Below are positions 18,528 through 46,258 of a stretch of 64,000 nt of DNA, piece by piece. The position numbers and the translations under genes are program-made. Below the pieces are notes generated by a model. The model saw only the letters and a program-made list of their open reading frames with translations. It had not been told where the DNA came from and did no database searches. The stretch comes from a virus: IMG/VR virus record IMGVR_UViG_2756170246_000002, positions 156 through 64,155 of that record. The stretch is one strand, 5' to 3'. The first letter of the stretch is position 1, and every line of letters starts with the position of its first letter.

Positions 18528-18748
18528 GATTGGCTTATCCTTGAGACTGGGTCGACTGTGGCGGAACGCGTCACATGGTCGGCGCTGGCGTTCCGTATTC
18601 CGGCATTGACCAGCACGCCGCGGTTGACCGCATCAGCGATGGCGAAAAATCCGGCCTCGGTCGGGAACACCAGGTCGACCGGGACGAAGCCGCCACCGAA
18701 AAAGCGCTTGCCGAAGAAGTGCCGACCGAACCATGACCCGGAAAACAT
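18524..18748 (-). CDS. Small virion-associated protein (F/G-rich N-terminus)
   Basis: MFSGSWFGRHFFGKRFFGG; coupled overlaps. Confidence 0.55.
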   Translation of the reverse strand: MFSGSWFGRHFFGKRFFGGGFVPVDLVFPTEAGFFAIADAVNRGVLVNAGIRNASADHVTRSATVDPVSRISQS

Positions 18749-20535
18749 CAGGTCGCGTCCGTCGCGACGGCTGAGCGATTCCCATCTGAATCGACGGTTG
18801 CCGTCAGGCGGTTCTTACTGTCGGCCGCGTCGCGGAAATGCACAGTCGTTCCGGCCAAGCCGTTGGCCTTGCCGTAGAGCGCGGCGCGGGCTAGGCGGAA
18901 ATGATCCTGCACCGTCTCGGCGCCTTCGTAGGTGGCCGCCAGGAGCGCGTCTGCATTGTCAGAAGGGCTTGGGATCGAAATCGCAGAGATGTCGGCTGCC
19001 GTTGCAAGCGCTGCATCCGTGATCGACTGATCGACGTCGGCTGACGATAGATCGTTGAGCGCGGCGACAGCGGTGCCGATTCCGTCGATGCTGCCTTGAG
19101 CATGGGCGATGTCGTCGGCCAGATCGCCGAAATTCGGCGTGCCGATGCGGCCTTCAATGGTTCCGGCTGCCGCGCCTGTATCGGTCAGCACCTTGCCCGC
19201 CGTTCCGTCCGTGGCATGGCCGGCAAGCGCTTCATCCCAGACCGCGACAGCAACTTCGCTTGCCGTCGGCGCGTCAGGCAGGGCCGCAATATCCGCGATG
19301 ATCGTGTCGGCCTTGCCGTCAGCCGATTGAGCCGCAGCCGTCCCGTCAAACAGGATCTCGGCCGCTTTTCCGCCGCCGAGATAGTCGGCAATCGTGGCCG
19401 ACCAGACACCGGCCTTGATGTCGTCGACCTTGGGCAGCGCATCGCCGTTTTCGTTGAGCACCCAGAGCTTGCCGGCGGTCTGGGCAATGGCGTCCTGCCA
19501 CGCCTTGATGCTGTCGACTTTGCCATCCGTGGTCGCTAGCGACGCGGCGGTAGCGAAGCCGGTAGCGGTTGCCCAGGTGCTGTCGCCATGCGACTGCAGC
19601 GCAGTGAAGGCGCTCGCGATGTCGGATGCATCGGCTGGGTCGGACGGAAGGTTGTCCGTCTTGGCCTTGACTGCTCCGGTGTCGCTTTTCACCGCTGCGA
19701 CATCCGCTGAAACAGATGCGCCTGATGGCGCACCAAGTCGACCCATGATCGCATCCGTGGCAGCAATGATCAGGCTTTCATCAGCCGGATCGCTTGGCAA
19801 ATTGTCCGTCTTGGCCTTGATAGCGCCGACATCGCTGGCCGTTATCCCGGTCACGCTGCCGACCGAGCCGGTGACGTTGCCCCCAACGTTTCCGGCGACA
19901 GAACCCACGGCACCGGTGACGGAACCGACGGTCCCAGTCACGCTAGCGATGGTAACGTCACTGGCCACCTTGGCGTCAGTAATTGCATCCGCGGCGATTG
20001 CGGCGGCGGTCAGTACTGCAGCCGCCATGGCGCCGACGCTGGCGTCGATGCGGCCGGAAACGAGCGCGGCGGGAATGCGTGTCTGGATGTTGTCGGTATC
20101 GGCCTGCACGCCGGCAATGTCAGCGCTGATCGATGCACCAACCGGGGCACCGATGCGGGCAAACACGTCGCTCGCAAGATTGTCGACCAGTTGCACATCG
20201 ACGCTGGCCTGCACCATGCCTGCCGCGCCCTTGATCACGATAGCGACGCTCTCGGCACCGGTGGCAAAAGCCGCATCCGGCACATCAAGCCGATAGATGC
20301 CAGGCATGTTGGCGGAATCGACTTCCTTGAAACCGCCGGATGACCACGCCGTGTTGGCGGCAGCGAGCGTGGCCAGGGTGATGGCAACGGCAGTGTTCTG
20401 GTTGCGCACATAGTAGGCGGTGAGGCTTGACGTGTTGTAGGCAAGCCCGGTCTTGCGCCCGCCCGTTGTCGATGCCGAATCCAGCACGTCGACATAGATC
20501 GACTGGCTGGTGGCGCCTTTTTTTATGGTGCGCAT
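18748..20535 (-). CDS. Putative head fibre/appendage protein with internal repeats
   Basis: 595 aa, Ala/Asp/Gly-rich; KAKTDNLPSDPAD occurs twice 50 aa apart. Confidence 0.6.
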   Translation of the reverse strand: MRTIKKGATSQSIYVDVLDSASTTGGRKTGLAYNTSSLTAYYVRNQNTAVAITLATLAAANTAWSSGGFKEVDSANMPGIYRLDVPDAAFATGAESVAIVIKGAAGMVQASVDVQLVDNLASDVFARIGAPVGASISADIAGVQADTDNIQTRIPAALVSGRIDASVGAMAAAVLTAAAIAADAITDAKVASDVTIASVTGTVGSVTGAVGSVAGNVGGNVTGSVGSVTGITASDVGAIKAKTDNLPSDPADESLIIAATDAIMGRLGAPSGASVSADVAAVKSDTGAVKAKTDNLPSDPADASDIASAFTALQSHGDSTWATATGFATAASLATTDGKVDSIKAWQDAIAQTAGKLWVLNENGDALPKVDDIKAGVWSATIADYLGGGKAAEILFDGTAAAQSADGKADTIIADIAALPDAPTASEVAVAVWDEALAGHATDGTAGKVLTDTGAAAGTIEGRIGTPNFGDLADDIAHAQGSIDGIGTAVAALNDLSSADVDQSITDAALATAADISAISIPSPSDNADALLAATYEGAETVQDHFRLARAALYGKANGLAGTTVHFRDAADSKNRLTATVDSDGNRSAVATDAT

Positions 20536-21994: not shown

Positions 21995-22975
21995 TTACGC
22001 GATTTTGTGGCGGAGCATCACGATGCGAACGTTCTTTTGCTCGTAGACGCGGCTCCAGTTGCCGGCGGCTGCGAGTTCAGCGTCGCTCGGCGTGACCGAT
22101 GCGGGAACGCCCGAACCCGGGTCCCACTTGATGCCGCGAGGATGCAGCACGTAGTGGCGGCGGGTCACCAGATAGTCCTGGCCACCATTGATCAGCGGGT
22201 TGCGGCCGACTTCGGACGGAACCTTGGGGTTGCCGTCGGCAAAGCCGATGGCGCCCGGGCCGAACAGGTAGGTGTCATAGACGCCGTTGGTGCCCGCGTT
22301 GGCATCGTCGACGATGAGTTCCTTCTGCATGAAGGTCTTCATGACGATCTGGCCGTCGGAGTCACGGATGGTGTCGATGAGGTTGTTCTTGGCAAGCAGG
22401 GCTTCCACAGCCGAGTGCATGAGCACGCCGCTGATCTGGTCCTTCTTGTCGCCGAGCATCTGGGCCGCGTCGATGAAGGACGTGCCGTCGATGATGGCGG
22501 CGGCACCCGACAGGCCCGAGATGTCGAGAGCGTTGACATCGGGGGACTCGGCGAGCAGCGCGCCCATGGCACCCTTGAGCGTGGCGATGAGCTGGTAGTT
22601 GAACTCACCGGACCAGTTCTCGGCGATGCCCGAGGCGATAGCGGCCATGGCATCGTCGCCGGCGAGAGCCGCCGAGAGATCGGTGCCACCGTAGACAAGG
22701 GCGCGTGCATGCTGCACGGCCTTGTCCTGGCCGGTCTGGACCTTGCGGATTTCCAGATCCTGGGTGTCGTCGAGAAGCTGCGCACGCTCGGACAGCGCCT
22801 TCCAGAACGGCATGTTGATTTCGGTGCCGCCCTGGTTGCCGAAGGTGAGGTCGGGAACCGAGGTGACGATGCCGGAGCGGAAGAACGCGTTGACCTGCGT
22901 GGTCAGTTCGCGGAAGTACGGGTTGAAGCGTTCCGGGACGATGACGTCCGCGAGAGCAGTGGGGGTGTCAGCCAT
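21995..22975 (-). CDS. Major capsid protein
   Basis: 326 aa after scaffold; LADVIVPERF, GGTEINMPFW, LVTRRHYVLHPRG motifs; GAGGAG RBS. Confidence 0.88.
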   Translation of the reverse strand: MADTPTALADVIVPERFNPYFRELTTQVNAFFRSGIVTSVPDLTFGNQGGTEINMPFWKALSERAQLLDDTQDLEIRKVQTGQDKAVQHARALVYGGTDLSAALAGDDAMAAIASGIAENWSGEFNYQLIATLKGAMGALLAESPDVNALDISGLSGAAAIIDGTSFIDAAQMLGDKKDQISGVLMHSAVEALLAKNNLIDTIRDSDGQIVMKTFMQKELIVDDANAGTNGVYDTYLFGPGAIGFADGNPKVPSEVGRNPLINGGQDYLVTRRHYVLHPRGIKWDPGSGVPASVTPSDAELAAAGNWSRVYEQKNVRIVMLRHKIA

Positions 22976-23100: not shown

Positions 23101-23955
23101 TTATTTGAGCGGACCGGTCGACCGGTTGGCGTGGTTGAGATCCTTGAAGCCGGCGGACTTCGCCAGACGCTCCGCCTTGGCGCGATCAGAACCGAGCAGC
23201 GCGCCTTGCTGGCTGATGTTCCATGTCTCCTTGGCGTAGGGGTTGGTTTCGCCATTGCGCAGGTTGCGATTGCCCCCGCGCTCGTCGGCGCCCGAAGGCG
23301 GCGCGATAAAATCCTTAGCCTCGTCGCTCTGCGACCAGTTGCCGATGAACTTGTCGAGCTCGTCACCGCCGAGGTCCGTCTTCATGCGGGCAACGCGCTT
23401 GCCGTCTTCCTCGACAATCTCGACATCGCCTTCGAACATGCGCTGCGCGGCCTTGAGCAGGGTCGGTTTGACGCCGGCTTTGACCAGCGCCTTGGTGAGC
23501 CCATCGCCAACGAGCGTGGTGCGCAGATCGCCTGTGATGCTGGCGATCGCGGTGTCCTTCTCGGCGATGATCTCGTCCTTGGCCCTGATCGCCGCGTCGT
23601 GGCGCGTCTGCATCTGCCGTTCCTTGGCGGCGACAGCGGTCTCGACCTGCTTGCGCACGTCCTTGCCTTCGGGATCGGCCTGGCGGGCTTCGTCCTCGGT
23701 CTTGAGGCGTTCCCATTCGGCGGCATCGAAATCTTCGGGCAGGCCCTTGAGCTTCTTCTCTGCCGCGGTGAGTTTTGCGCGCGCTTCGTCGCGCTCGCGC
23801 TTGGAATTGGTGTGGCCGTTTTTGAGAGCGATGACGGCGGGATGGTCGTCGATCCCGTCGATCTGCAAGATGTGCTTGCCGTCCTTCTCCTCATAGAGGG
23901 CATGGAGGGCTTCCTCGATACCATCGAGGCTGGAAACGACTGACTTCAAAGCCAC
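23101..23955 (-). CDS. Capsid scaffolding protein
   Basis: Coiled coil, LYEEKDGKHILQIDG N-terminus, NPYAKETWN C-terminus; AAGGAG RBS before GTG. Confidence 0.82.
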   Translation of the reverse strand: MALKSVVSSLDGIEEALHALYEEKDGKHILQIDGIDDHPAVIALKNGHTNSKRERDEARAKLTAAEKKLKGLPEDFDAAEWERLKTEDEARQADPEGKDVRKQVETAVAAKERQMQTRHDAAIRAKDEIIAEKDTAIASITGDLRTTLVGDGLTKALVKAGVKPTLLKAAQRMFEGDVEIVEEDGKRVARMKTDLGGDELDKFIGNWSQSDEAKDFIAPPSGADERGGNRNLRNGETNPYAKETWNISQQGALLGSDRAKAERLAKSAGFKDLNHANRSTGPLK

Positions 23956-24000
23956 CGGCTTTTCTCCTTTGGGGTTGAGAAGCCCGCACCGCGAGCACGA

Positions 24001-24025
24001 AAAAACCCGCCGGGATGGCGGGCTG
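24001..24025 (-). terminator. Intrinsic terminator-like hairpin upstream of scaffold
   Basis: CCCGCC ATCCC GGCGGG followed by TTTTT. Confidence 0.65.
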
Positions 24026-24080
24026 GAAAGCATCAGAAATGAGTAGAAATCACCTCGGATTTGAGGTCGTGACCGGACGG

Positions 24081-24229: not shown

Positions 24230-25039
24230 TCAGTCGCTCGGGCTGGTTGAGGCGTTGGTGAGAGAGCCGGTCACGGCGAAAGCGCCCGCCGACCCCTGGT
24301 TGCTGGCAAAGGCCGCAGCGTTGCCCGTAAAGAGGACGGACCCCGCAGGGAAGCCTGACGGATCAGCCGGCTTGCCGTCAGCATCTATGAACTTGCGGCG
24401 CGTCGCCTCGGGGATATTGCCGTCGCCATCCAGAAGTGAAGTTCCAAACGCAATCCAGACATCGGCAAACTCGATCGCCACTTCACGCGGGAACGAAATC
24501 GGGTCGTCGAACCCGCCGAAAATCCATTTGCGGCCGTTGATCGTCATCACGCCGCCCGGCAGAAACCCACTATGCAGCACGAAGTCGGGGTCGAGATCGC
24601 GCTGCGCGACATCATCAAGATATTGCTGGGCCTGCGGATCAGCCATGTCGCCAGAGAACAGCATGTGATGCCATGCGCCCTCGATGGTCGAGAACTGGTT
24701 GCCGGCCTGATAGCCATAGGTTAGGTCGGCCGAGTAGGAATAGACCGACACTTCTTGTGCACCGGGGCCGTTCGATGGGAAACTGACCGCCGGAGTGGTT
24801 GACGCGTCTTCCTGGGTGACACCAAACCAGTACTGCTCGCCCACGGGCAATGTAGGGGTTTTGAACCAGATGCTGAATGAGAGAAGCCCCGTGTCGGCGG
24901 CCGTGGCGGCGGCATTGACCAATTGCGTTGACGGGTCAAAGGCTACAGCCTGCGCCACATATGGCGCACCACCACCACCGACATTCGGCGCGCTGGCGAG
25001 ACCCAGCCCGAAAGCAGGCGCTAGAGAGAACCCGCTCAT
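24230..25039 (-). CDS. LamG/ConA-like domain virion-associated protein
   Basis: SFSIWFK, WHHMLFSGD, QQYLDD, FADVWI motifs. Confidence 0.6.
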   Translation of the reverse strand: MSGFSLAPAFGLGLASAPNVGGGGAPYVAQAVAFDPSTQLVNAAATAADTGLLSFSIWFKTPTLPVGEQYWFGVTQEDASTTPAVSFPSNGPGAQEVSVYSYSADLTYGYQAGNQFSTIEGAWHHMLFSGDMADPQAQQYLDDVAQRDLDPDFVLHSGFLPGGVMTINGRKWIFGGFDDPISFPREVAIEFADVWIAFGTSLLDGDGNIPEATRRKFIDADGKPADPSGFPAGSVLFTGNAAAFASNQGSAGAFAVTGSLTNASTSPSD

Positions 25040-26081: not shown

Positions 26082-26158
<77 letters not shown>

Positions 26159-26167
26159 AAACCATCT

Positions 26168-26203
26168 GGTGCCAGAATGGTTACAATCTCACGCCGATGT
26201 CAA
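26168..26203 (-). promoter_or_regulatory. Putative tRNA promoter TTGACA-N18-CATTCT overlapped by operator variant (26168-26184)
   Basis: TTGACA at 26203-26198; GGTGCCAGAATGGTTAC. Confidence 0.55.
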
Positions 26204-27424
26204 GAGCGATGGCTGTGGACAATCCGAACCGAGCCAGTCGGCGTCGGGTTTGCCGAGGAGTTCGGCGGTCCACCCGCCCATCGACCGCACGAACGGCGCG
26301 AGGTCCGCCAGATGCGCCCGCCATGCCTGCCGATACCGCTCCACCTGACGCCATGGCTGGCCATTGTAGAAGTGCGGCGAGGTGTCCATCGGGACGCCGC
26401 CAAGAACAATGCGCTCATAGCCCAGTTCAAGCAGGCCCTTGACCGCAAGCAGCCCGGTCGAGCCGCCCCAATCGGGCGTGGTCTTGTCGATGCCAGGCGC
26501 TGCCTTGTGCGCCCAGACCTCGGGTTTGTTGCGCCCTGCCTTGACGCGCCGTGACACCGCGTCTCGGATGCCGATCCAGTCGATGCATGCGCCCGGATGC
26601 AGCGTGAACCAGTAGTCGAGATGCCCCTGCCATTCGATGCCGATGTTGTTGGCGGCGGCGACAGCGTTCGGCGTGAACAGTTTCAGCGCAGATGCGGCGT
26701 CGGCATGGACACAGGCCGCATCGCCCAAAACCAGGGCCGTTCTCACGGGATCAGGTCTCCAGTCGGTGAGCACGGGTGCATCCCGCTCTGGTTCGGGCCA
26801 GATGTCGCCCGCTGCTACCAGGCGCACGCGCTGCCGGCGCGCCAGATGCTGCATCACAGGCAACTCGATCGCGAAATCATGGTTGCCCGCCTTGCTCACT
26901 CCGCCCTTGTAGGCGGAGAAGCTGAAGGTGCCGGGGTTCTTGCGATAGGTCGGCGAAAAGGCCTGGTCGAGCTCCAGCGTTTTTCCCGCTGCGATATTGT
27001 CGAAGCCGACAAGGGCAATAGTCGATCCGCGCTGCGCCCGCTCGATCGCCCAGCATGTAGCGATCGTGCCGCGCGTGAACTGGAGCCGCCCCGTGGCGCC
27101 AAGCCCGCCGAGCTTTTCGCCGATCGTGTTCCAGGGCTTCTGGTCGACCAGCTCGGTTCCCTTTGGCATGTCGCAGCGGTCCGGTTGGTGCAGGATCGAT
27201 GCGACCCAGCCGCGCGCCGGCTTGCGCCGGTTGTTCTGCTGGAACGTCTTGATCATGGCCGGGTGCGCTTCGAGCAGCCCGAAATCGTACTTTTGACCGT
27301 AATCGACCGCATCCTGCCAGGCGCAGTCCCACATGCGGATGACGGTGTCGCAACCGTCGATGAACTTGCCCCAGCGCTTGCCCTCCGGCGAGCGGCCGTG
27401 GCCGATGATCGCTATCGTTGCCAT
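26189..27424 (-). CDS. Two-domain transferase: GT29 sialyltransferase-like + MAF/DUF115-like
   Basis: Sialylmotif-L-like IAIIGHG...GKFIDGCDTVIR, S-like TRGTIA...ALVGFD, VS-like HDFAIE; second domain GGSTGLLAV...YERIVLGGVPMD. Confidence 0.65.
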   Translation of the reverse strand: MATIAIIGHGRSPEGKRWGKFIDGCDTVIRMWDCAWQDAVDYGQKYDFGLLEAHPAMIKTFQQNNRRKPARGWVASILHQPDRCDMPKGTELVDQKPWNTIGEKLGGLGATGRLQFTRGTIATCWAIERAQRGSTIALVGFDNIAAGKTLELDQAFSPTYRKNPGTFSFSAYKGGVSKAGNHDFAIELPVMQHLARRQRVRLVAAGDIWPEPERDAPVLTDWRPDPVRTALVLGDAACVHADAASALKLFTPNAVAAANNIGIEWQGHLDYWFTLHPGACIDWIGIRDAVSRRVKAGRNKPEVWAHKAAPGIDKTTPDWGGSTGLLAVKGLLELGYERIVLGGVPMDTSPHFYNGQPWRQVERYRQAWRAHLADLAPFVRSMGGWTAELLGKPDADWLGSDCPQPSLLTSA

Positions 27425-28329
27425 TCGATCAGCAGCACCGGATAGAGGCCAGGCGAGCCGCGCCAGCGGTTGATGCGGCGGCGGCCGTCGAGCACGATCG
27501 TGCGGCGCTGCGGTCCGCCGCGCATCAGCGTCACCGGGCCATCCTCGAAGCGCGGCGGCAGGTCGGTCCGATAGTGATCCTCCGGCTCGGCCGTGGCATC
27601 ATGCTTCGACGCCATCCAGTCGATGACCTTCACCAGATCGGCCGCCGGCCAATATGTCGATGTAACCCGATGCGTTTCGGGCGACGGTTGGACATGTCCA
27701 AACCATTCGCAGGCAATGCGCTGCATCTCGAAATAGGGCGTGTGGCCATGATGCTGGAACTGCGCAAGCACGTCGTCCCATGTTGGGGGGCGCAGCCGGA
27801 ACATCTCCTCGACGCCGTCTTGCGTGATCTCGGTGACTCGGCGGTCTTCGATGTAGAGCCCGTCAATCGCCGTATACCAAGCCGAAAGCTGGTGTGTCTG
27901 GTTGACGCGGATCGTCTCGTGGCCGTGCCTGATCGTGGCGACGATTGTTCGGGCAACGCGCCGCAGTTCGGCGACGGCGACCTGCATCTCACTTGGCCGA
28001 AGCCAATCGAGGAGCCGTGTGCATATCGCTGTGGCGAAGTCGCTGTCATGGTAGGGCAGCGCGAAAATCGATCCCTGAAACGTGGCAAACTCGGGATAGC
28101 GCGCGCTCGCCACCGCCAACATGTCGGCCGAGACATCGACACCGGTCACAGCAAACCCGCGCTCGCGGTAGATTTCGCCATAGCGCCCGGTGCCAAGCGG
28201 CACGTCGAGCACCGGACCATCTCGAACGAAGTCGGCGACCGCCAGTTGCTCGCGCGCCCAGCGCAGGGAATGGCAGCGCTCGACGTCATACCGCTCTGCG
28301 ATGGTGCCGTGATACTTGTCGGGGTTCAA
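27412..28329 (-). CDS. Class I SAM methyltransferase fused to a ParB/Srx-like C-terminal domain
   Basis: VLDVPLGTGRY, GVDVSADML; C-terminal VLDGRRR; likely TTG start overlapping upstream TGA. Confidence 0.75.
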   Translation of the reverse strand: MNPDKYHGTIAERYDVERCHSLRWAREQLAVADFVRDGPVLDVPLGTGRYGEIYRERGFAVTGVDVSADMLAVASARYPEFATFQGSIFALPYHDSDFATAICTRLLDWLRPSEMQVAVAELRRVARTIVATIRHGHETIRVNQTHQLSAWYTAIDGLYIEDRRVTEITQDGVEEMFRLRPPTWDDVLAQFQHHGHTPYFEMQRIACEWFGHVQPSPETHRVTSTYWPAADLVKVIDWMASKHDATAEPEDHYRTDLPPRFEDGPVTLMRGGPQRRTIVLDGRRRINRWRGSPGLYPVLLIEWQR

Positions 28330-28544
28330 AGCCGGTCCATGACGTGAAGCTTCAGATGCTCGGCGATCCACAACGCAAACTCTCGCGACATGTGGGAAGA
28401 TTGAACCACAAAATCGTCATCGTCCTTGTGGAAGCCGACGATAATCACCTGATCCCACGATTCCCGACTGCTGTAGGCAAGCGCCTCTTCTGGCGTCATC
28501 TTGTTGTGTGGGCCGAGTTCAACGACCTTTTCGTTGGCGCTCAT
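28326..28544 (-). CDS. Small hypothetical protein
   Basis: 72 aa, 4-bp overlaps on both sides. Confidence 0.6.
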   Translation of the reverse strand: MSANEKVVELGPHNKMTPEEALAYSSRESWDQVIIVGFHKDDDDFVVQSSHMSREFALWIAEHLKLHVMDRL

Positions 28545-29392
28545 CGTGCTTGCCAGGCTGCCGCGTGTTCCACCCCATGCTTGCAGCCGTCGCTGTTGCA
28601 GCCGCCACAGGGCGAAAGACCCTCACGAGACCGAAGCAACTGCATGCGACGCTTGCGCATTGCCGGCGAGGTCCAGATGTCGAGCAGGTGCTCGTGAGCG
28701 GCAGAGCCGAAACGCACCACCTTATGCCAATCCTGGGGGCAGAGCAGAACGTCGCCATTCCAATCCAACATCAATTGGTATCCGGCGTACCAGCATGGCC
28801 GTGTCGCATCGATCGGCCGCTGCTCGCCGACATTGATCGTCCCGGCCCGATTGGTGAGGTGCGACAGGCCGAAATTCTCTTCCTCCGGCTGCCAGCGGTC
28901 GCGCAGGATGAACTCGCTCGAGCCAGCCTCGGCAAAGATAGCCTCGAAATGCTCGATCTGGGATGGCCCGTCATACATCGAGACGCAGATGTAATCGCAG
29001 CCGGCCGCCGTGAGGTCGCGCACCATGCTCGCGGTGAGCCGATCGCCATTCGTGGTCAACTCGACGCGGAACTCGCCGAAGGCGCGCACCAGGTCGATGA
29101 TTTTCGGATGCAGCAGCGGCTCGCCGAAGCCGCAGATATGGACCGTTCCCTCGTAGGCGAGGTCTTTCAGGTCGGCCGCGATCTTGCGCGCCAACTCCAC
29201 AGACATGTGGAGCCGCTGGTTGGGGTAAATCGCGTCATCGACGCGCGGGCAGAAGACGCAAGCCCGGTTGCAAAGTTCGGTCGGGTTGATCTCAACGAAC
29301 GAGAACAGCGGCACCTTGCCGACCATCTGGACGCGATCAACGAAGGTCGCCTTGCGCGCCAAGTTGCGGAGCGTGGCGTCGTTGGCGTTCAT
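28541..29392 (-). CDS. Radical SAM enzyme with SPASM/twitch domain
   Basis: CNRACVFC, GFGEPLLHP, LTTNG, C-terminal CWY...NGDVLLC...PCGGC. Confidence 0.92.
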   Translation of the reverse strand: MNANDATLRNLARKATFVDRVQMVGKVPLFSFVEINPTELCNRACVFCPRVDDAIYPNQRLHMSVELARKIAADLKDLAYEGTVHICGFGEPLLHPKIIDLVRAFGEFRVELTTNGDRLTASMVRDLTAAGCDYICVSMYDGPSQIEHFEAIFAEAGSSEFILRDRWQPEEENFGLSHLTNRAGTINVGEQRPIDATRPCWYAGYQLMLDWNGDVLLCPQDWHKVVRFGSAAHEHLLDIWTSPAMRKRRMQLLRSREGLSPCGGCNSDGCKHGVEHAAAWQAR

Positions 29393-29595
29393 CAGGCGGC
29401 AATGCGCTTGTGCACGTAGACCGAACGATCCGGCGTGATCCGGTAGCCATCGAACTCGACGCCTGCGCCTGGAAGGGTGCCCTTGTCGAGATAGACCCTG
29501 CTTCCGTCGCGAAAAATCACGACGCCTTCAATGCTTTCGTCCGATGACAGGACGGCGGCGATTTCCTCGGTGTCGATCTGCAGCTTTTCCATCAT
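29392..29595 (-). CDS. Small hypothetical protein
   Basis: MMEKLQID..., coupled overlaps. Confidence 0.55.
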   Translation of the reverse strand: MMEKLQIDTEEIAAVLSSDESIEGVVIFRDGSRVYLDKGTLPGAGVEFDGYRITPDRSVYVHKRIAA

Positions 29596-30233
29596 CCAAC
29601 CTTCCTGAAAATCATGAGCCCGTCGCGGTGCACCAAGCGCCCGCTGTCGTCGTAGCTGGCGTGGATGAGTTGGAGCCGATCGCTGGCGAGGAACAGTTTC
29701 AGCGCACCGGTAAAGCCGTTGGCGATCTCGGCGCCGTAGCGCTGCTCGCCGTGCAGGAAGGCCTGCGACACGACCAGCAAACCATCGGCGCGCAAGGTGC
29801 GCAGCATGTTGGCCAGCGTCACGTCGAAGCGGTGCAGCACATACCAGAGGCACTGGCCGAGCACGACGAAGTCGACCGAGACGCAACCGAAGTCGTCCGC
29901 TGTGATGTCGCCCTGCCGGAACACCGCGTCGTGCTGGAGGCTGCGCGCGGTCTTGACCGCCGCTTCGCTGATGTCGATCCCGATCATGGGGCAGATCGCG
30001 GCGCGTAGCATCGCGGTCAAGTGACCGTGGCCGCAGCCGATCTCGATGCCGGCATTGAACGGCCCGAGCCTGCCCAGCGTCTCAACGAGGCGCGTGCGGC
30101 TCACGGCGTAATAGGCCGCCATCTGGCCCTTGCGGCCGGCCTGGTCCCAAGGATCAGGGTTTTCCGAATAGACCCTCTGCCAGTCGCCGACGAGTTGGAG
30201 CTTGCCGTCGGTCTCGGCGAAGACGCCTTCCAT
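29592..30233 (-). CDS. Class I SAM methyltransferase, NodS-like
   Basis: PDPWD, IEIGCGHG, GIDISEAAV, LWYV motifs. Confidence 0.85.
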   Translation of the reverse strand: MEGVFAETDGKLQLVGDWQRVYSENPDPWDQAGRKGQMAAYYAVSRTRLVETLGRLGPFNAGIEIGCGHGHLTAMLRAAICPMIGIDISEAAVKTARSLQHDAVFRQGDITADDFGCVSVDFVVLGQCLWYVLHRFDVTLANMLRTLRADGLLVVSQAFLHGEQRYGAEIANGFTGALKLFLASDRLQLIHASYDDSGRLVHRDGLMIFRKVG

Positions 30234-30592
30234 CAGGCCGCTTCCGCCAGCCAGAAGGTCTCGATGGCATCAAGCACATCCGGCGCTGTCACGCCGTCGC
30301 GAAACACGCCGCCGATCTGGCAATATGCGCAGATGGTTCGTTCGGCATGATGCGCTCGGCCTGCCCGATATAGATGCTCGATCCACTCGAACGGCGACAT
30401 ATCTGCCTTCTCGTTGTTGCACGCGAAGCAGACGATAATCGCCAGCGTGCCGCCCTGCGAGCGAGGGAAAATATGATCCCTTGTGGTGTGGAAGATGCTG
30501 CGATTGCGCCCTAGAACCATCTTCACACCGCAGTATGGGCACGGCTTTCCAACGGCCTTTTCGCGTCGCTTGTACAGGTCGATCACGTTCAT
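30233..30592 (-). CDS. HNH endonuclease
   Basis: CPYCG...TRDHIFPRSQGG...CFACNNEK. Confidence 0.8.
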   Translation of the reverse strand: MNVIDLYKRREKAVGKPCPYCGVKMVLGRNRSIFHTTRDHIFPRSQGGTLAIIVCFACNNEKADMSPFEWIEHLYRAGRAHHAERTICAYCQIGGVFRDGVTAPDVLDAIETFWLAEAA

Positions 30593-31641
30593 ACCGACTC
30601 CACAAAGATGCTGTGGAACCGCTGCATCAGCGCCCCAGAGCCGCACGTCACAAGCAGATGCCCGTCGAGCGGCGCCGGGAAACCCGCCTTCACATGCACG
30701 CCGCGCACCTTGAGCGCCGCAGCAACCTCGCTCGCGCGCTCGCCCGGCCCGATCAGCACGTGGTTTGCGAACCAGCCCCGAACATCGAAGCCGTCGGCGC
30801 GCAGCGTCTCGCGCAGCCAATCGCGGCCGGCGCAGACCTCCGCAATGCCGGGCTCGATCCATTGCGCCCACATGTCCATCAGCACCGTGGCGGCATGCAG
30901 CGAAGGGCCTGAAATCTCGCCGGACTCCCGAATGGCATGAAGCGGCCGGATCACCGAAGGCTGCCCGATGGCATAGCCGACGCGAAGCGCAGCACCGCCG
31001 AAAGCCTTCGAAAAGGTGCGCATGATCAGCACGTTGTCGAACTCGTCGACCAGCGGCAGCGCCGTTTCGGCACCAAAGCCGTAATAGGCCTCGTCGATGG
31101 CGAACACCGCGCCGATCTCCTGGCAGCGCTGCGCGATGCGCCTCAACTCAGCGAGGCAGAAATAGGTCTCGACCGGCTGGCCCGGGTTCGGCAGGATCAG
31201 CAGCCGAACGCCGCTGTCCAGCTTGTCCACGATGTCGGCGACGCCGAGCAATCGTTTCGGGTCCGTGACGATCCGAACCGGCCTCGCGAGGAAAACCTCG
31301 GAATAGACGTCGAACATGGCGCAGGTCGGCCAGGTGAAGGCAAACCCATCCGCCGGCTCGCAGCAGAGCAGGATGAGGGTGCGGATAAAATCCTCGATAC
31401 CGGCGCCGACGACAAGCCGTTCCTCGGCCACGCCGGTGAAAGCGGAAAGCCTGCGATAGAACGCGGCATAGTCCGGATACCAGTTGTCGGGCGGGCCGGC
31501 GCGCATCGCTTCCACGACTTCGCTCGGCCATGGCTCGGGGCGTTCAAGACGGTGCAGGCGCATATCCTCGCGCGGGATCGGCGGGATGCGCTTGCGCTCG
31601 ATCGAGCCCAGATGCCGAAAACACTCACGGAACAACGTCAC
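30589..31641 (-). CDS. PLP-dependent aminotransferase class I/II (HisC/CobD-like)
   Basis: NPGQP, IDEAYYGF, RTFSKAFG.AALRVGY (PLP lysine). Confidence 0.92.
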   Translation of the reverse strand: MTLFRECFRHLGSIERKRIPPIPREDMRLHRLERPEPWPSEVVEAMRAGPPDNWYPDYAAFYRRLSAFTGVAEERLVVGAGIEDFIRTLILLCCEPADGFAFTWPTCAMFDVYSEVFLARPVRIVTDPKRLLGVADIVDKLDSGVRLLILPNPGQPVETYFCLAELRRIAQRCQEIGAVFAIDEAYYGFGAETALPLVDEFDNVLIMRTFSKAFGGAALRVGYAIGQPSVIRPLHAIRESGEISGPSLHAATVLMDMWAQWIEPGIAEVCAGRDWLRETLRADGFDVRGWFANHVLIGPGERASEVAAALKVRGVHVKAGFPAPLDGHLLVTCGSGALMQRFHSIFVESV

Positions 31642-31844
31642 AGCGCGCGAAACTCCGTCTCGGTCGAGCGGCGCGTCAACAGCTTGACCTCGCCACCATC
31701 GGGCAGGATCTTGCCTTCAAGCTCCAGCACCACGCTCGACGTTCCTGGATCCCACGATGCCCCGACGATGCGCACGCGGCAGCGCTTGTCGGGCCACATT
31801 TCGCGCTCCAGCACCTCGCGATAGATGCGCAGCGTGGCTCTCAC
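31638..31844 (-). CDS. Small hypothetical protein
   Basis: 68 aa, overlaps portal stop and aminotransferase start. Confidence 0.55.
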   Translation of the reverse strand: MRATLRIYREVLEREMWPDKRCRVRIVGASWDPGTSSVVLELEGKILPDGGEVKLLTRRSTETEFRAL

Positions 31845-33298
31845 GCTGCGGCGGCCGGCGCCGGGATGGCGGGAACGGCATGAACGGCGGGATTGCCAGG
31901 CGCGGCCGGATCGGCAGGATTTGCCACGCCGCCGATGACAAGGCCGCTCTCGTCGAGCGTGCCCTGGCCCGATGCCAGTTCCCTGTCGATGAGCGCCTGT
32001 TCTTCTTCCGCGGTGCGCTCGGCGCTGACCGCTTCGCCCTTCTGCAGGCGCTCGTACATGGTCTGGTAGGAATAGCCGCCCTCCTGCCAGCCCTTGATCA
32101 CGTCGACGACTTCGGCAGGAGTCAACTGGCTGTCGATGAACGACAGGTTCGGCTTGACGATCACCTTTTCAGGATCGAGGCCCATCATGACAGCGATGTA
32201 GCGCAGCGCCTTTTCCAGCCCCTTGGCAGAGGCTTGCGCGATGGTGACGAGCGTTGCCGTCTGGGCAGCGAAGCGCAGGCGGCGCGCGTCACCCGATTCC
32301 TGGGCAGGAGCATCGGTGTCGAACAGCCTCGCGCCAGCCGCGACCGCATTGTTGCGCTCATCAGTGATGGCTGTGCGGTGCGCCGCGATGCCCGTGCCGG
32401 CCGGGCCGACATATTTCGCGTCGGGTGTCTGCTCGCCATCGGCTTTGAGCGAGACGATGACGCCGGCGCCAACTGCTTCTGGCTCATCGCCATTGATGAT
32501 GAACAGCGTTTCCTGGCCGGTCATGAAGAGTTGCCAGCGGTAGTCGGCTGACAACTGGTACATGCTGACCGCCGAGCGCGCCACGCCGATCAGCGGCGGC
32601 GTCTCCGGATCGATCGACAGGTCGCGCGCGCCCATGACGACGAAGGGGATTTGCTCGAGAGCCTTGTCGCCGCGCGCCGTCGGAATGACCGGAGCGCCAG
32701 CGCTTAGCGTATCGCCGGAATGGATCGTGGCTTGGTATTTGCCGTCGACCATCTCAAGCACGCGATACTGCTTTTCCTCAACCCAGTCGAAGCCTTGGCG
32801 CACGAGGCCAGTCTCATCAAGCACATAGAAATCACCGGCTTCCGACCAGTTGATCAGCGCTTCGGTGCAATAGGTCACGATGTACGGCAGGTCGCTTCCG
32901 GTGCTCGCGGCGCCCGCCAACAGGCCATAGCGCCCAGTCGTCAAAAGCTCTGCCGTGATCCTCGCATGCAGCGCCTCCAGCGGCAGGCCTTCCTTTGTCG
33001 CCTTCTCCCACAGCGGCTGCATCGCCGGTGGCATTTCGATCTGGCTTTCGGTGCGATGGATGACACCGATCATGCCGCCAACGGTCGGCCCAACGATCTC
33101 GGGGAACTGCGCCCGCATCTTGTAGGCTTCGTACATGGCGTCGCCGGCCGGCTGCGCCTTGAAACCTGACGGCCTCGGCAGGTAGGTGATCGTTTCGCAC
33201 TTGATGGCCGTTTCGCCACGCGCCGAGTCACGCATCAACCGCCACTCTTCGATCCGAAGATCGTAGTAGGGATGATGGCTGTCGACGGAATTGGTCAT
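31841..33298 (-). CDS. Portal protein, DUF4055 family
   Basis: 485 aa directly after terL; HPYY...W, YLPRP, AESG-like QESGDARRLRF motifs. Confidence 0.85.
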   Translation of the reverse strand: MTNSVDSHHPYYDLRIEEWRLMRDSARGETAIKCETITYLPRPSGFKAQPAGDAMYEAYKMRAQFPEIVGPTVGGMIGVIHRTESQIEMPPAMQPLWEKATKEGLPLEALHARITAELLTTGRYGLLAGAASTGSDLPYIVTYCTEALINWSEAGDFYVLDETGLVRQGFDWVEEKQYRVLEMVDGKYQATIHSGDTLSAGAPVIPTARGDKALEQIPFVVMGARDLSIDPETPPLIGVARSAVSMYQLSADYRWQLFMTGQETLFIINGDEPEAVGAGVIVSLKADGEQTPDAKYVGPAGTGIAAHRTAITDERNNAVAAGARLFDTDAPAQESGDARRLRFAAQTATLVTIAQASAKGLEKALRYIAVMMGLDPEKVIVKPNLSFIDSQLTPAEVVDVIKGWQEGGYSYQTMYERLQKGEAVSAERTAEEEQALIDRELASGQGTLDESGLVIGGVANPADPAAPGNPAVHAVPAIPAPAAAA

Positions 33299-42677: not shown

Positions 42678-42913
42678 ACATTCCGCCTTCCGAAATTGGC
42701 ATCGAACTCTTTGAGCCAGGCCGCGCCCTTTGCTGACGCCTGATACCGCCGCGCATTCTTCGGATCACGATCGAGGAAGCCATTGTCGTGAAGCTTCAGG
42801 CAGGAGCGGATCGAACACGGCCGGATGGCGAGGAACCATGTCCCGCCGATCGATGCGCGCAGGATCGCCTTTTGCGATGGGCCGGGCGCATAGACCTTGC
42901 CGACATAGGTCAT
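42674..42913 (-). CDS. Small winged-helix-like hypothetical protein
   Basis: ATGA overlaps; L...GFL...Y..S.KG pattern. Confidence 0.5.
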   Translation of the reverse strand: MTYVGKVYAPGPSQKAILRASIGGTWFLAIRPCSIRSCLKLHDNGFLDRDPKNARRYQASAKGAAWLKEFDANFGRRNV

Positions 42914-44082
42914 GGCTGATCGCCTTCGATGATCTCGCCCGTCTCAGGGTCATGCGGCGGCAGTTCCGCCTCCAAGCCCCATGCCGACCAATTTGGCCGC
43001 GCCGGACCGCGCCGGTTCAACTCGATCTTCGGCGTGTTCGGCCAAAGCTTGTCGATCCAGTCGAGGAACAGTTCCGGCTTGGCCGAGTGTTCGCCGCTCG
43101 GCGCCATGATCGCTTCGCCTTCGAACCAGGAAGGAAGTTTCGGATCGTACATATCGGGCGCGACCGGATTTCCGCGCGTGGCGACGAGCAGAATCTCATG
43201 CTTGCCGCGGTTCCAGTAGCCGGTGATGATGCGCTCTTTCAGCCAGGCGAACGAGGTGACGTAGCGGGCGTCGGTCTTGACCGGACGGAGATTACCTACC
43301 TCCGCATCACGCTCCAGCACCGCAAAGCCCCATGCGTCGAGGACGCAAATCGCCTCGATCAGCATCGGCGCCGTGGCCCACAGGAACAGTATGCAATCGT
43401 CGGCCGCGATCGACGCGACGTCGCGCGCCATGATCGCGTCGAGGCTGGATGTCGGGTAATGGTTGTCGGCGGCGCGATCCATGCCGGTTTCTCGGCTGTA
43501 TGGCTCGAAGCGCCATTCCGGGTCGGCCAGGATCAGCCCGAACTTTTGGGTCGGCAGCGCGCGCTGCGATGCGGCGAGCTCCGCCTCGCGCTGGTCGCGC
43601 GACATGCGTTTCTCGCCGGCCTTGAGCAGATTGACCGTGACGCGCTCGTTCTCGATTTCGATCCGATTGCGCCAGTCGCCGACCATGGCTTCGAACTCGC
43701 CTTCGGGAACCGCCGCCATCTTCTGGGCTCGCGCCGACATCTTGCGATCGACGCCGACGTCGGAAAGCGTGGGCTGCTCCGGAACCTGTCCCCTCGAGGC
43801 ACTTGTTTTCGGGCGGCCTCCCGGGTTGAGGCCGATCGTGGTCTTCTGCGCCACGATCAATTCGCCCAGCCGGCGCTCGGCGCGAATCCTGATCTCGGCC
43901 GCGTCGACCTCCATCTGATGATTTTTCGCTTGCCTGGCATAGGCGCGCATCGCCTCGGCCTTGTCGTGGAAGTCCTTCACCTCATCGATAGACTTTGCGC
44001 TGGCGAGCGCCATGCAGGCTGCGTCATAGCGAACGAGCGATGAAACGGGCGAGGCGTCGCCGATTGTTTGCGTGCGGATCAT
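42910..44082 (-). CDS. MT-A70-family N6-adenine methyltransferase with helical N-terminal domain
   Basis: ILADPEW, AADNHYPT, LFLWATAPM, KHEILLVATRG, HSAKPE, KIELN. Confidence 0.88.
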   Translation of the reverse strand: MIRTQTIGDASPVSSLVRYDAACMALASAKSIDEVKDFHDKAEAMRAYARQAKNHQMEVDAAEIRIRAERRLGELIVAQKTTIGLNPGGRPKTSASRGQVPEQPTLSDVGVDRKMSARAQKMAAVPEGEFEAMVGDWRNRIEIENERVTVNLLKAGEKRMSRDQREAELAASQRALPTQKFGLILADPEWRFEPYSRETGMDRAADNHYPTSSLDAIMARDVASIAADDCILFLWATAPMLIEAICVLDAWGFAVLERDAEVGNLRPVKTDARYVTSFAWLKERIITGYWNRGKHEILLVATRGNPVAPDMYDPKLPSWFEGEAIMAPSGEHSAKPELFLDWIDKLWPNTPKIELNRRGPARPNWSAWGLEAELPPHDPETGEIIEGDQP

Positions 44083-45386
44083 GCTGCCCTCCCAAAGATC
44101 ATAAGCCCGGTTGGAATATTGGTGCCTGCTTCTGCAAAGCTCCCGACCGGCAAATCCCGCCACCTGCCTTTGAGTTCGCCGTGATCGTAGTGAGCCGTCG
44201 CCGGGAGAACGGAAATAAGCTTGCCGCCAGGCTTCAGAAAATCCGTAGCGTGACGAACGTGCTTGACGTAGTGGCGCCCATAGAATGGCGGGTTCATCAC
44301 CACGAAATCGAACTCTGGCTTTGCCGGGCATTCCAGGAAGTTGGCTGTCAGGACGTTGTGACCCTTGGCCCTCGCTTCTGCGGCGCGGCCGGCGTGGACT
44401 TCGATTCCGAGCGACAGGCAACCCCGATCGCGCAGCTCATCCAATATCCGACCATCACCGCATGATGGCTCCAGAACACGATAAGGAGGAGCTTCCCGGC
44501 GCGAATATTCGGTAGGCCGATAAATGCCCACCTCGGATAGCGCTTCGTCTATTACCGCCTTCGGCGTCCAGTAGAATTGCAGGTCTTTGGAAACAGAAGT
44601 GCCGGTGCGCTTTGGCGCATTCTCTTCCTCGGCATCCGGCAAAACCTCGCCATAGAACTCTGCAAGCGCGCGGTTGATGTCTACCAGCGTGTCGGGAGGG
44701 AAAATGACATGCCCGTTGCCGTTCCTGAACTTCCGCACATGCAGGCCACGAACGGTTGCATCGCCGTCAGTCTCCCGAGTGTAGGAGTGCAGGCCGTCAA
44801 CCTCGGCGAAGTCGACATGCTCTGCCATCGGCTCGCCGCGATAGGCCGCGAGGGCGTTCACGATGTCGCGAAGCTTGTTTCTGCCATAACTGCCGTAGCC
44901 GGACACATTCGACAGGATAATCCGCTTCGGCAAACCCTTGACGCCGATCTTCACCTTGGAGTGAGACTTGTAGGCCGGGTCGAGATCGGAGAAGACTTCG
45001 GCCAGACCGCGCAAGATATGATGGCGAGGCCGCTCCAGATAATCGCCGAACGTCGCCTTGGCGTTGTCGAAGGTTAGATCCGGCGGGTTCTCAACCGTCT
45101 GGTCGAACAGCTTGCGGTCGCGGGCGCTGGCAATGCGGTCAATTTGGAGGCGATCGTAAATCGCCTTCCACCCCGATTTACAGAGGTTCCGCTTCAGGCT
45201 TTCAGCGCTGACATGCGGGCGATGCTGCGAGACAGGGCCAACGAACTTGCCCTGAATGCATGCTGCCATTTCCAGTCGCGTGTAAGCCGCCTCGAAGGCC
45301 TTCACCTCAGCCTCCATGGCGTCACGTTTCTGATCGTATTCCTCGATCAGGTCGGTGACGGTGCTTTGGCGCGCAAGCGCGTTCAT
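44079..45386 (-). CDS. DUF4942-type DNA adenine methyltransferase
   Basis: FYWTP, VLEPSCGDG, VVMNPPF; N-terminal DUF4942-like region. Confidence 0.85.
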   Translation of the reverse strand: MNALARQSTVTDLIEEYDQKRDAMEAEVKAFEAAYTRLEMAACIQGKFVGPVSQHRPHVSAESLKRNLCKSGWKAIYDRLQIDRIASARDRKLFDQTVENPPDLTFDNAKATFGDYLERPRHHILRGLAEVFSDLDPAYKSHSKVKIGVKGLPKRIILSNVSGYGSYGRNKLRDIVNALAAYRGEPMAEHVDFAEVDGLHSYTRETDGDATVRGLHVRKFRNGNGHVIFPPDTLVDINRALAEFYGEVLPDAEEENAPKRTGTSVSKDLQFYWTPKAVIDEALSEVGIYRPTEYSRREAPPYRVLEPSCGDGRILDELRDRGCLSLGIEVHAGRAAEARAKGHNVLTANFLECPAKPEFDFVVMNPPFYGRHYVKHVRHATDFLKPGGKLISVLPATAHYDHGELKGRWRDLPVGSFAEAGTNIPTGLMIFGRAA

Positions 45387-45970: not shown

Positions 45971-46258
45971 CGTGCAAAGATGAAACCGGCCGTCAGGGCT
46001 CATCTTCACCTTGGGATCGGTCATCGGGATCAGTTCATGCGTGTTGCGGATTTCGTAGCCGCGAGCGCCTTCGATGATGTCGGCGTCGGGAACTTCGCGG
46101 CAGTCGATTCCGCTGCAGCAATTTTGTGGATAGCTCCAACCCGTCGGCGCGTCGTGGCTATGCGCCTTCCCGCCGAACAGCGTGTTGAGGAAAAGTACCG
46201 ATGCGGCTATAGCCAGCACCCACTGCAGGAAGAGGAAGCGCTTGCGCTCGGCGGTCAT
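45911..46258 (-). CDS. Exported Cys-containing hypothetical protein
   Basis: N-terminal hydrophobic helix, AHSHDAPTGWSYP..CCSGIDC, PDGRFHLC. Confidence 0.75.
   Translation of the reverse strand: MTAERKRFLFLQWVLAIAASVLFLNTLFGGKAHSHDAPTGWSYPQNCCSGIDCREVPDADIIEGARGYEIRNTHELIPMTDPKVKMSPDGRFHLCTVGGLDDSRTICLFAPSRGF

Follow-up and report, generated by a model that had tools for sequence, protein, structure and literature searches.

A candidate virion glycosylation cassette behind the portal gene of a prophage from a rhizobial-type soil bacterium

Directly behind the portal gene of a temperate siphovirus-type prophage lies a chain of nine open reading frames (ORFs) that includes an aminotransferase (AT) dependent on pyridoxal phosphate (PLP), two methyltransferases (MT1 and MT2), a radical S-adenosylmethionine (SAM) enzyme (rSAM) and a transferase of two domains (GT). 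We analysed this cassette within a stretch of 64,000 nucleotides (nt) from the IMG/VR virus record IMGVR_UViG_2756170246_000002, positions 156 to 64,155, hereafter the window. The best-supported reading, to which we give a probability of roughly 55%, is that the cassette is expressed late and glycosylates head proteins of the virion with a tailored sugar, possibly derived from 3-deoxy-D-manno-octulosonic acid (Kdo). An aminated or methylated sugar built late for head proteins had already been proposed in a first-pass annotation of this DNA, and the proposal finds partial support here. The grounds for thinking of a sugar are the folds of both transferase domains, the recurrence of the cassette in head modules across portal and capsid families, the sugar enzymes that larger cassettes add, and a homologous MT1-rSAM pair in bacterial flagellin islands. 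Gene order, folds, motifs, synteny and the gene inventory of the host are the observations used. It is likely that the region is a sugar-tailoring and transfer system, and we lean slightly towards a virion head protein as its acceptor.

In the literature searched, virions shown experimentally to be glycosylated are those of mycobacteriophages only, where the modification targets capsid or tail-tube subunits (Freeman et al. 2023, as cited in PMC12619734 and PMC12801897). The mycobacteriophage cassettes resemble the present one in carrying glycosyltransferase and methyltransferase genes inside the structural operon, and subunits of this kind are presumed to be the acceptor here. They differ in that the window holds sialyltransferase and Maf folds, a BtrN-like rSAM and a HisC-like AT, and in that the hosts concerned here are Gram-negative alphaproteobacteria. 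Searches on phage glycosylation, radical SAM enzymes, Maf and related subjects returned no characterised system of this composition, which agrees with the statement in the first-pass annotation that none was known. If the favoured reading is right, the glycosylation of phage virions has in this cassette a new and so far uncharacterised variant, akin to the islands that glycosylate flagellin.

The two-domain transferase and the tailoring enzymes

The last gene of the chain encodes a transferase of 411 residues, whose AlphaFold model has a predicted local distance difference test score (pLDDT) of 85.5. Residues 1-207 superimpose on the animal sialyltransferases ST6GalNAc2 (6apj) and ST3Gal1 (2wnf) with Z 11.9, 173 and 162 residues being aligned at a root-mean-square deviation of 3.2-3.4, and on CstI with Z 11.6; the Foldseek probability is 1.0. 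The domain thus shares the GT-A-variant fold of the animal GT29 and the Campylobacter GT42 (CstI/CstII) enzymes, with Z 10-12 over about 170 residues. Like them it begins with a segment resembling motif L, contains an S-like TRGT segment and carries a VS-like H-x4-E motif, of which the family alignment shows E187 to be invariant and H182 nearly so. It departs from them in its low identity (12-17%, below the Pfam threshold) and in being a soluble domain of about 210 residues that lacks a membrane anchor. Residues 224-400 form the second domain, which can be superimposed with Z 11.4 on the central domain of the flagellin glycosyltransferase Maf (5mu5, residues 269-513) over 168 residues.

This protein is rare in its complete form and common in its parts. 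Only 16 close relatives were found among 5.8 billion proteins, the nearest named homologue being from Mesorhizobium, and the full-length protein has no Pfam match at threshold. The sialyltransferase model PF00777 is matched at E<=1 by 9 of the 17 family members, with a best E of 1.5e-6. An exhaustive profile search put the number of representative clusters at 2,028 for E<=1e-3 and at 1,419 for E<=1e-10, most of them stand-alone proteins of either about 180 residues (Maf-like) or about 215 residues (GT29-like); in two of the compared loci (numbered L001-L046), L008 and L036, the two domains are likewise separate genes. At the sequence level, a profile search of the family against solved structures gave no meaningful match. 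Among annotated phages, the DNA of the 5.7-kb cluster matched nothing, and tblastn with the 411-residue protein found only p38 of Paracoccus phage Pkon1, through the C-terminal domain alone.

The best match of rSAM in the PDB is BtrN (4m7t; E 2e-14), which it covers over nearly its full length (residues 28-268). Its CxxxCxxC motif reads CNRACVFC, and the C-terminal cysteines of the auxiliary cluster align with those of BtrN. The family is large, a search at E<=1e-20 returning no fewer than 862 clusters of homologues. From its sequence, rSAM is probably a dehydrogenase; with BtrN as the best solved relative and AT as a constant neighbour, we infer that it may oxidise a secondary alcohol of a sugar or an amino-cyclitol. 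In the 2-deoxystreptamine branch of butirosin biosynthesis, BtrN also works next to an aminotransferase, and the aligned cluster cysteines and the adjacent AT in the phage fit the same course from alcohol over ketone to amine. The two cases differ in that identity is only about 25-27% and one lies in a phage head module, the other in an antibiotic cluster. Moreover, BtrS, the partner of BtrN, belongs to the DegT family, whereas the phage AT is HisC-like.

AT is present in each full cassette. It scores 164 bits against the hisC model TIGR01141, under the equivalog cut-off of 276.55, and 97 bits against CobD; histidinol-phosphate and phenylalanine aminotransferases are its best PDB matches, and the lysine motif is present as SKAFG. 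By sequence it is a member of the HisC/CobD subfamily of PF00155 and not HisC itself. Enzymes of the HisC/CobD type usually take phosphorylated substrates. A parallel in chemistry is offered by Cj1436 and Cj1437, two PLP enzymes of the Campylobacter capsule that supply the phosphorylated amines with which glycans are decorated (PMC11800397). MT1, finally, is always encoded beside or near rSAM.

The simplest chemistry for these three enzymes would lead from an alcohol to a ketone, an amine and a methylamine; substrate, order of steps, donor and acceptor are all inferred. In the proposed scheme, rSAM would oxidise a secondary alcohol of a sugar to the ketone, the HisC-like AT would convert the ketone to an amine, and MT1 would methylate the aminated product. 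The Maf-like domain would then transfer the activated sugar, whose donor is probably CMP-activated (CMP, cytidine monophosphate), onto serine or threonine of a capsid, decoration or fibre protein of the head, and the GT29-like domain would add a sugar to the glycan or extend it.

All domain calls of the first-pass annotation were reproduced, among them the HisC/CobD-like PLP enzyme, the radical SAM/SPASM protein and a transferase combining sialylmotif-like segments with a MAF/DUF115-like domain, for which the model now confirms both folds and the recommended Foldseek comparison returns the GT29/GT42 fold. Three of the calls needed refinement: the start of MT2, the basis of its ParB-like domain (both treated below) and the strength of the NodS likeness of MT1. 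MT1 stands as a class I methyltransferase, while its NodS label is weak, since the score (22.8 bits) lies under the cut-off of 24 and, among solved structures, a generic SAM methyltransferase comes closest. Its orthologues in L005 and L045 do match NodS.

The tailoring enzymes could also be thought to act without any sugar. A residue might be modified directly, through oxidation of serine or cysteine to an aldehyde as by anSME, followed by transamination and methylation as in ribosomally synthesised and post-translationally modified peptides of the daptide type, or the enzymes might yield a small molecule in free form, for example an aminocyclitol. Many radical SAM/SPASM enzymes in NCBIfam mature peptides, and MT2 weakly matches a daptide methyltransferase model. 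A BtrN-like rSAM is also paired with a HisC/CobD-like PLP enzyme in Campylobacter phage CPt10 and Synechococcus phage S-SCSM2R, with amidinotransferases annotated elsewhere in both genomes. We nevertheless give such chemistry a low probability. No conserved small ORF resembles a precursor: orf67 and orf72 are restricted to their lineage, and in some cassettes, that of L006 among them, AT, MT1 and rSAM have no small ORF between them. The invariant partner is a protein with a sialyltransferase fold, larger cassettes carry glycosyltransferases and FkbM sugar methyltransferases, and the best structural relative of rSAM is BtrN, a sugar/cyclitol dehydrogenase and no peptide maturase.

Coupling to the late operon and recurrence in head modules

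The prophage resides on contig C11 of a 7.45-Mb genome, and its host is a rhizobial-type soil bacterium. On the minus strand the genes follow one another as TerS, TerL, portal, the nine ORFs, a tRNA-Met with three small ORFs (one encoding a helix-turn-helix protein), scaffold and major capsid protein (Table 1). Nine overlapping ORFs behind the portal were predicted earlier, and all of them are indeed present. At each junction from TerL through the last ORF the genes overlap by 1, 4, 13 or 14 nt, the junction types in the chain being ATGA, GTGA, TTGA and TGATG, so that the cassette is translationally coupled to the late operon. A high G+C content at third codon positions (GC3, 0.74-0.87) backs the coding character of the larger ORFs and of orf68. 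No sigma-70-like promoter was found inside the chain. Terminator-like sites within it are weak, their stems having 5-7 pairs, and shuffled sequence contains at least as many of them; an Rfam scan of 17-37 kb returned the tRNA as its sole match.

Three RNA-seq libraries from one sample of the same organism contain contigs identical to the window over 17-37 kb, in which the cassette and the late genes are covered at 100% identity, with an uneven summed depth of about 4 to 44. These contigs are compatible with transcription during spontaneous induction.

The core of the system, as delimited by tblastn synteny at 40-85% identity, consists of AT, MT1, rSAM and the N-terminal domain of GT, usually accompanied by the C-terminal domain. 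In line with the gene-neighbourhood survey that had been suggested as a check, this four-gene core recurs in about 15 independent phage contigs (L003-L009, L013-L017, L019, L036 and L042), in head or structural modules. In each phage context with readable flanks the cassette stands among head genes, and this holds for two portal families, DUF4055 (SPP1-type) and Portal_Mu. Where a DUF4055 portal is combined with a Gp13-like capsid (L003-L006, L008, L013 and L036), the cassette lies between portal/MuF and scaffold; with the Mu-type portal of L042 it lies between portal and MuF; and in L007 and L017-L019 it occupies another part of the structural block, ending beside MuF. Three hits chosen from the exhaustive search were all located in phage head modules. 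The larger cassettes carry additional FkbM methyltransferases, a DUF6716 glycosyltransferase and a 2-oxoglutarate (2OG) oxygenase. Such additions, together with the epimerase, GT9 and acetyltransferase genes described below for L035, are typical of glycan building and not of DNA or peptide chemistry.

The Maf-like domain has a similar distribution of its own. As a stand-alone gene for about 180 residues it has genes for scaffold/capsid, MuF or tail tube as neighbours in L002, L030, L032, L033, L040 and L041, and in all full cassettes the homologue likewise adjoins genes of this kind. It directly precedes scaffold and capsid in L030 and L040, follows the capsid gene in Paracoccus phage Pkon1 and in the P22-like L041, where a GT2 and an rSAM gene accompany it, neighbours a P22-type coat gene and MuF in L033, and directly precedes the tail-tube gene in L032. 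A sulfotransferase or GT2 gene is often adjacent, the sulfotransferase being found near the Maf-like gene in L030 and L032. The capsids associated with these stand-alone genes belong to the Gp13-like, P22-coat-like and Phage_capsid_3 families.

In relatives that lack the cassette, Bradyrhizobium phage BDU-MI-1 and Acinetobacter phage Ab105, the same slot is filled by small ORFs and once by a tRNA, which marks the cassette as accessory cargo. The tRNA of BDU-MI-1 is a tRNA-Asn (L012, 7705-7777) in the position matching that of the tRNA-Met of the window. Judging by the tRNAs between portal and scaffold in two phages, SPP1-type head modules seem in general to accommodate cargo at this position.

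More distant BtrN-like rSAM genes were seen near genes for HisC/CobD-like PLP enzymes in two further phages. The region of Campylobacter phage CPt10 (L010, 72650-85402) also encodes a PAP2 phosphatase, a further four radical SAM enzymes and what may be an amidinotransferase, and that of Synechococcus phage S-SCSM2R (L001, 20884-35606) a ParB-like CTPase and a 2OG oxygenase. The pairing of rSAM and PLP enzymes may be a wider phage theme.

Flagellin islands, proposed sugar donor and candidate acceptors

The closest cellular counterpart of the MT1-rSAM pair is found in two metagenomic bacterial contigs (L045 and L046; 2052-18864), in which an rSAM of 54% and an upstream MT1 of 34% identity form part of an island. 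It runs from flagellin over a canonical Maf (Maf_flag10_N plus MptE-like), a sulfotransferase, MT1, rSAM and a methyltransferase to a class III aminotransferase, behind which come glycosyltransferases and a KpsC/KpsS-like gene; the island includes two GT2 genes and a UDP-galactopyranose mutase. We know of no characterised flagellin glycan pathway of this type. The shared MT1-rSAM pair identifies the phage cassette as a compact relative that has moved beside the gene of another self-assembling structural protein, and the exchange of a class III for a HisC-like aminotransferase suggests that the amination step, rather than a particular enzyme, has been conserved. Compared with flagellin Maf islands in general, including that of the Magnetospirillum Maf 5mu5, the likeness lies in a transferase of Maf fold encoded beside a self-assembling structural protein, in the homologous pair, and in the presence of an aminotransferase and a sulfotransferase in the island. 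The differences are that the phage domain comprises a core of about 180 residues without the N- and C-terminal domains of Maf and is fused to a GT29-like domain, and that the phage has neither a synthase of the NeuB/PseI type nor a CMP-synthetase. Taken together, the likeness to the bacterial flagellin sugar kit makes a virus particle coated with an aminated, methylated sugar the most likely outcome.

The host genome, which is 100% complete, contains one strong CMP-transferase of the KdsB type; neither a NeuB-type synthase nor a Maf recognisable by Pfam was found in it. Since no sialic-acid pathway exists in phage or host, the donor must differ from that of GT29 and GT42 enzymes, and the presence of KdsB makes CMP-Kdo, or a derivative tailored by the phage, the likeliest candidate. 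Their folds suggest that the transferases use a CMP-sugar; should they do so, the only source in sight would be CMP-Kdo or one of its derivatives.

The flagellin connection also speaks for another target. Instead of the virion, the cassette might modify the host surface (flagellin, the Kdo core of lipopolysaccharide, or capsule), possibly blocking the adsorption of progeny or of rival flagellotropic phages. It is in flagellin-Maf islands that the MT1-rSAM pair has its closest cellular counterpart, characterised Maf enzymes act on flagellin, and GT42 sialyltransferases act on lipooligosaccharide at the cytoplasmic membrane face; the RNA-library contigs, too, include the region although the culture was possibly uninduced. 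What makes this unlikely is the genetic setting: translational coupling ties the genes to terminase and portal and no promoter-like site serves them separately, in about 20 contexts the cassette or its Maf-like gene is found within head or tail modules and not near attachment sites or lysogeny genes, and the cassette is devoid of membrane proteins, a flippase and polyprenol-linked enzymes.

For the preferred target, a protein of the head, the major capsid protein is one candidate. An alignment of capsids from nine carriers of the cassette or the Maf-like gene with four from phages that have neither shows differences at one serine/threonine column (residue 271 in the window) and in a two-residue indel; as these are confounded by relatedness, no acceptor site can be claimed. 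The window also encodes, between the capsid and head-tail genes, a protein of 595 residues (18748-20535, minus strand) that is rich in alanine, serine, threonine and aspartate, in which the sequence KAKTDNLPSDPAD is repeated and the N-terminal domain is beta-rich. Neither Pfam nor PHROG gives a match. The protein may be a fibre of the head and a possible acceptor of the glycan. Only L003 and L013 share it, with its C-terminal end found also in L008 and L009, and given this restriction to close relatives we rejected it as a general acceptor.

Several observations weigh against late glycosylation of head proteins and have to be set beside the evidence above. PF00777 matches the 411-residue transferase with only E 0.022 and 14.6 bits, below the cut-off of 23, and only over residues 5-70. 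The Maf-like domain resembles SteA (Z 11.0), the archaeal pyrophosphokinase MptE HPPK (9.9) and thiamin pyrophosphokinase (TPK, about 8) to a similar degree (Z 8-11), so the fold does not prove transferase activity, and PF01973 (Maf/MptE-like, DUF115) matches nothing in the whole host genome, the GT gene included. The HisC family is not a usual family of sugar aminotransferases, and the cassette genes include no CMP-sugar synthetase or sugar synthase. The location in head modules could in part result from an insertion hot spot. The RNA data are assembled contigs of a single sample, for which DNA contamination is possible, and thus prove neither transcription nor its timing. Finally, the capsid alignment yielded no convincing serine/threonine feature common to the carriers.

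Should the favoured reading be true, virion glycosylation would extend to Gram-negative phages, through both the cassette and its stand-alone Maf-like relatives, and would be linked by descent to the glycosylation of flagellin. A glycan on the head surface could affect the stability and aggregation of particles, their sticking to host polysaccharide, and their recognition by capsid-sensing defence or, in phage therapy, by antibodies. A route to an amino sugar through radical SAM, PLP and methyltransferase enzymes, maybe new chemistry, would give enzymologists a compact pathway of three enzymes. A bolder and doubtful extension is that Gram-negative phages commonly sialylate their own heads by means of miniature transferases of Maf or GT29 fold (more than 1,400 clusters, in head modules), with rSAM, HisC-like AT and methyltransferase turning host Kdo or CMP-Kdo, by a new route without any NeuB-type synthase, into a methylamino-ulosonic acid as the sialic-acid-like sugar for these transferases.

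Accessory genes and other features of the prophage

MT2 illustrates how the cassette varies. Its start is most likely the TTG at 28329 (305 residues), as indicated by homologue sizes of 299-313 residues and by the TTGA overlap; GTG at 28371 is less likely. In the model (pLDDT 93), the N-terminal domain resembles ChlM with Z 20.9. The C-terminal domain of about 120 residues has no match in Pfam (E<=10) or among PDB sequences, and it is its fold (residues about 230-319) that matches the ParB_N, ParB/Srx, DUF6551 and GmrSD_N models, with template modelling (TM) scores of 0.45-0.51. Its DGRxR motif is conserved, D295, G296 and R299 being invariant and R297 nearly so. Thus, of the methyltransferase-ParB-like fusion named in the first-pass annotation, the methyltransferase is firm, whereas the ParB likeness rests on fold and motif and has no counterpart in sequence searches. 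The gene occurs in the window, L008, L009 and L036 and is absent from L003 and L013, the closest cassettes. In L035 a homologue stands between the portal and the head-tail genes of a phage structural module, accompanied by an epimerase, GT9 and a hexapeptide acetyltransferase. Judged from these comparisons, MT2 is an optional accessory that supplies an extra methyltransferase.

The ParB/Srx-like domain and the position next to terminase and portal had raised the alternative that phage DNA is hypermodified during or after packaging. PLP and radical SAM enzymes serve thymidine hypermodification in other phages. DNA can also be a substrate of phage glycosyltransferases (Pyle et al. 2024, as cited in PMC12619734). 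This alternative has been weakened to the point of being very improbable. PF00303 (ThyA family) has its sole match in the genome on contig C6 and PF01702 (TGT) its sole match on C8, both outside C11, so that the prophage has neither a pyrimidine hydroxymethylase nor DpdA. In addition, the MT2-ParB/Srx protein is missing from the closest cassettes and its family occurs also in the plain sugar cassette, MT1 and MT2 are class I methyltransferases of the small-molecule/protein type and not of the DNA type, a separate MT-A70 DNA methylase is encoded elsewhere in the phage, and the cellular counterpart is a flagellin island.

The HNH gene has no part in the system. It is absent from all related cassettes, even those of 75-85% identity, and AT abuts MT1 in the two closest relatives, which identifies it as a lineage-specific selfish insertion. 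It sits precisely between AT and MT1, joined to them by ATGA and TGATG overlaps; a free-standing homing-type endonuclease seems to have been inserted here recently and precisely, leaving translational coupling intact.

Among the small ORFs, orf68 has homologues of 50-84% identity directly upstream of AT in L003, L013 and L036, making four lineages in all, and no match in Pfam or PHROG. The ORF at the position of orf67 in L004 bears no similarity to it, and orf72 has no match in the other cassette loci. The nine ORFs had originally been treated as a single system; this stands for the four core genes, while MT2 is optional, HNH an insertion, and orf67 and orf72 confined to their lineage.

Table 1. 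Coordinates of the cassette genes and neighbouring head-module features in the window
Feature	Position	Strand	Remarks
Cassette of nine ORFs	26189-31844	minus	orf68-AT-HNH-MT1-orf67-rSAM-orf72-MT2-GT, behind portal
Portal gene (context)	31841-33298	minus	phrog_145 E 1e-100, DUF4055; stop overlaps cassette start
orf68, small soluble protein	31638-31844	minus	First cassette gene; GTGA overlap with portal stop; semi-conserved
AT, HisC/CobD-like fold-type I PLP aminotransferase	30589-31641	minus	Core gene; PF00155 E 3e-26
HNH endonuclease	30233-30592	minus	PF01844 21.8 bits (over cut-off), HNH PHROGs
MT1, class I SAM methyltransferase	29592-30233	minus	Core gene; Methyltransf_11 E 4e-14
orf67, small soluble protein	29392-29595	minus	Matched in L003 (nearest relative) only
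rSAM, BtrN-like radical SAM enzyme with SPASM/twitch	28541-29392	minus	Core gene; PF04055 and PF13186 (E 6e-12)
orf72, small soluble protein	28326-28544	minus	Lineage-specific; weak match to phrog_11040 (family of unknown function)
MT2, class I SAM methyltransferase with ParB/Srx-like C-terminal domain	27412-28329	minus	Accessory gene; Methyltransf_25 E 3e-13, Methyltransf_11
GT, N-terminal domain (residues 1-207)	26804-27424	minus	Core gene; GT29/GT42-like sialyltransferase fold
GT, C-terminal domain (residues 224-400)	26225-26755	minus	Maf/MptE-like (DUF115-type) fold
tRNA-Met (CAT)	26082-26158	minus	In portal-to-scaffold slot
Scaffold	23101-24033	minus	phrog_206
SPP1 gp13-type major capsid protein, candidate acceptor	21995-22975	minus	phrog_247, PF20036; 42% identical to SPP1 gp13

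Three further features of the prophage were recorded. Between the tRNA and the scaffold gene, an ORF of 269 residues (24230-25039) matches no family and lacks the high GC3 that marks real genes here. One contig from an RNA library (run X2) joins 24272 to 24945 and so omits 672 nt within this ORF; the shorter side of the joint has just 29 letters, and the joint may stem from the assembly, from a variant or from processing of the RNA. The early region encodes the MT-A70-type DNA methyltransferase, of 503 residues (42910-44421, minus strand), as well as a strong homologue (E 3e-82) of Acb3, an inhibitor of the defence system CBASS (46255-47103, minus strand).

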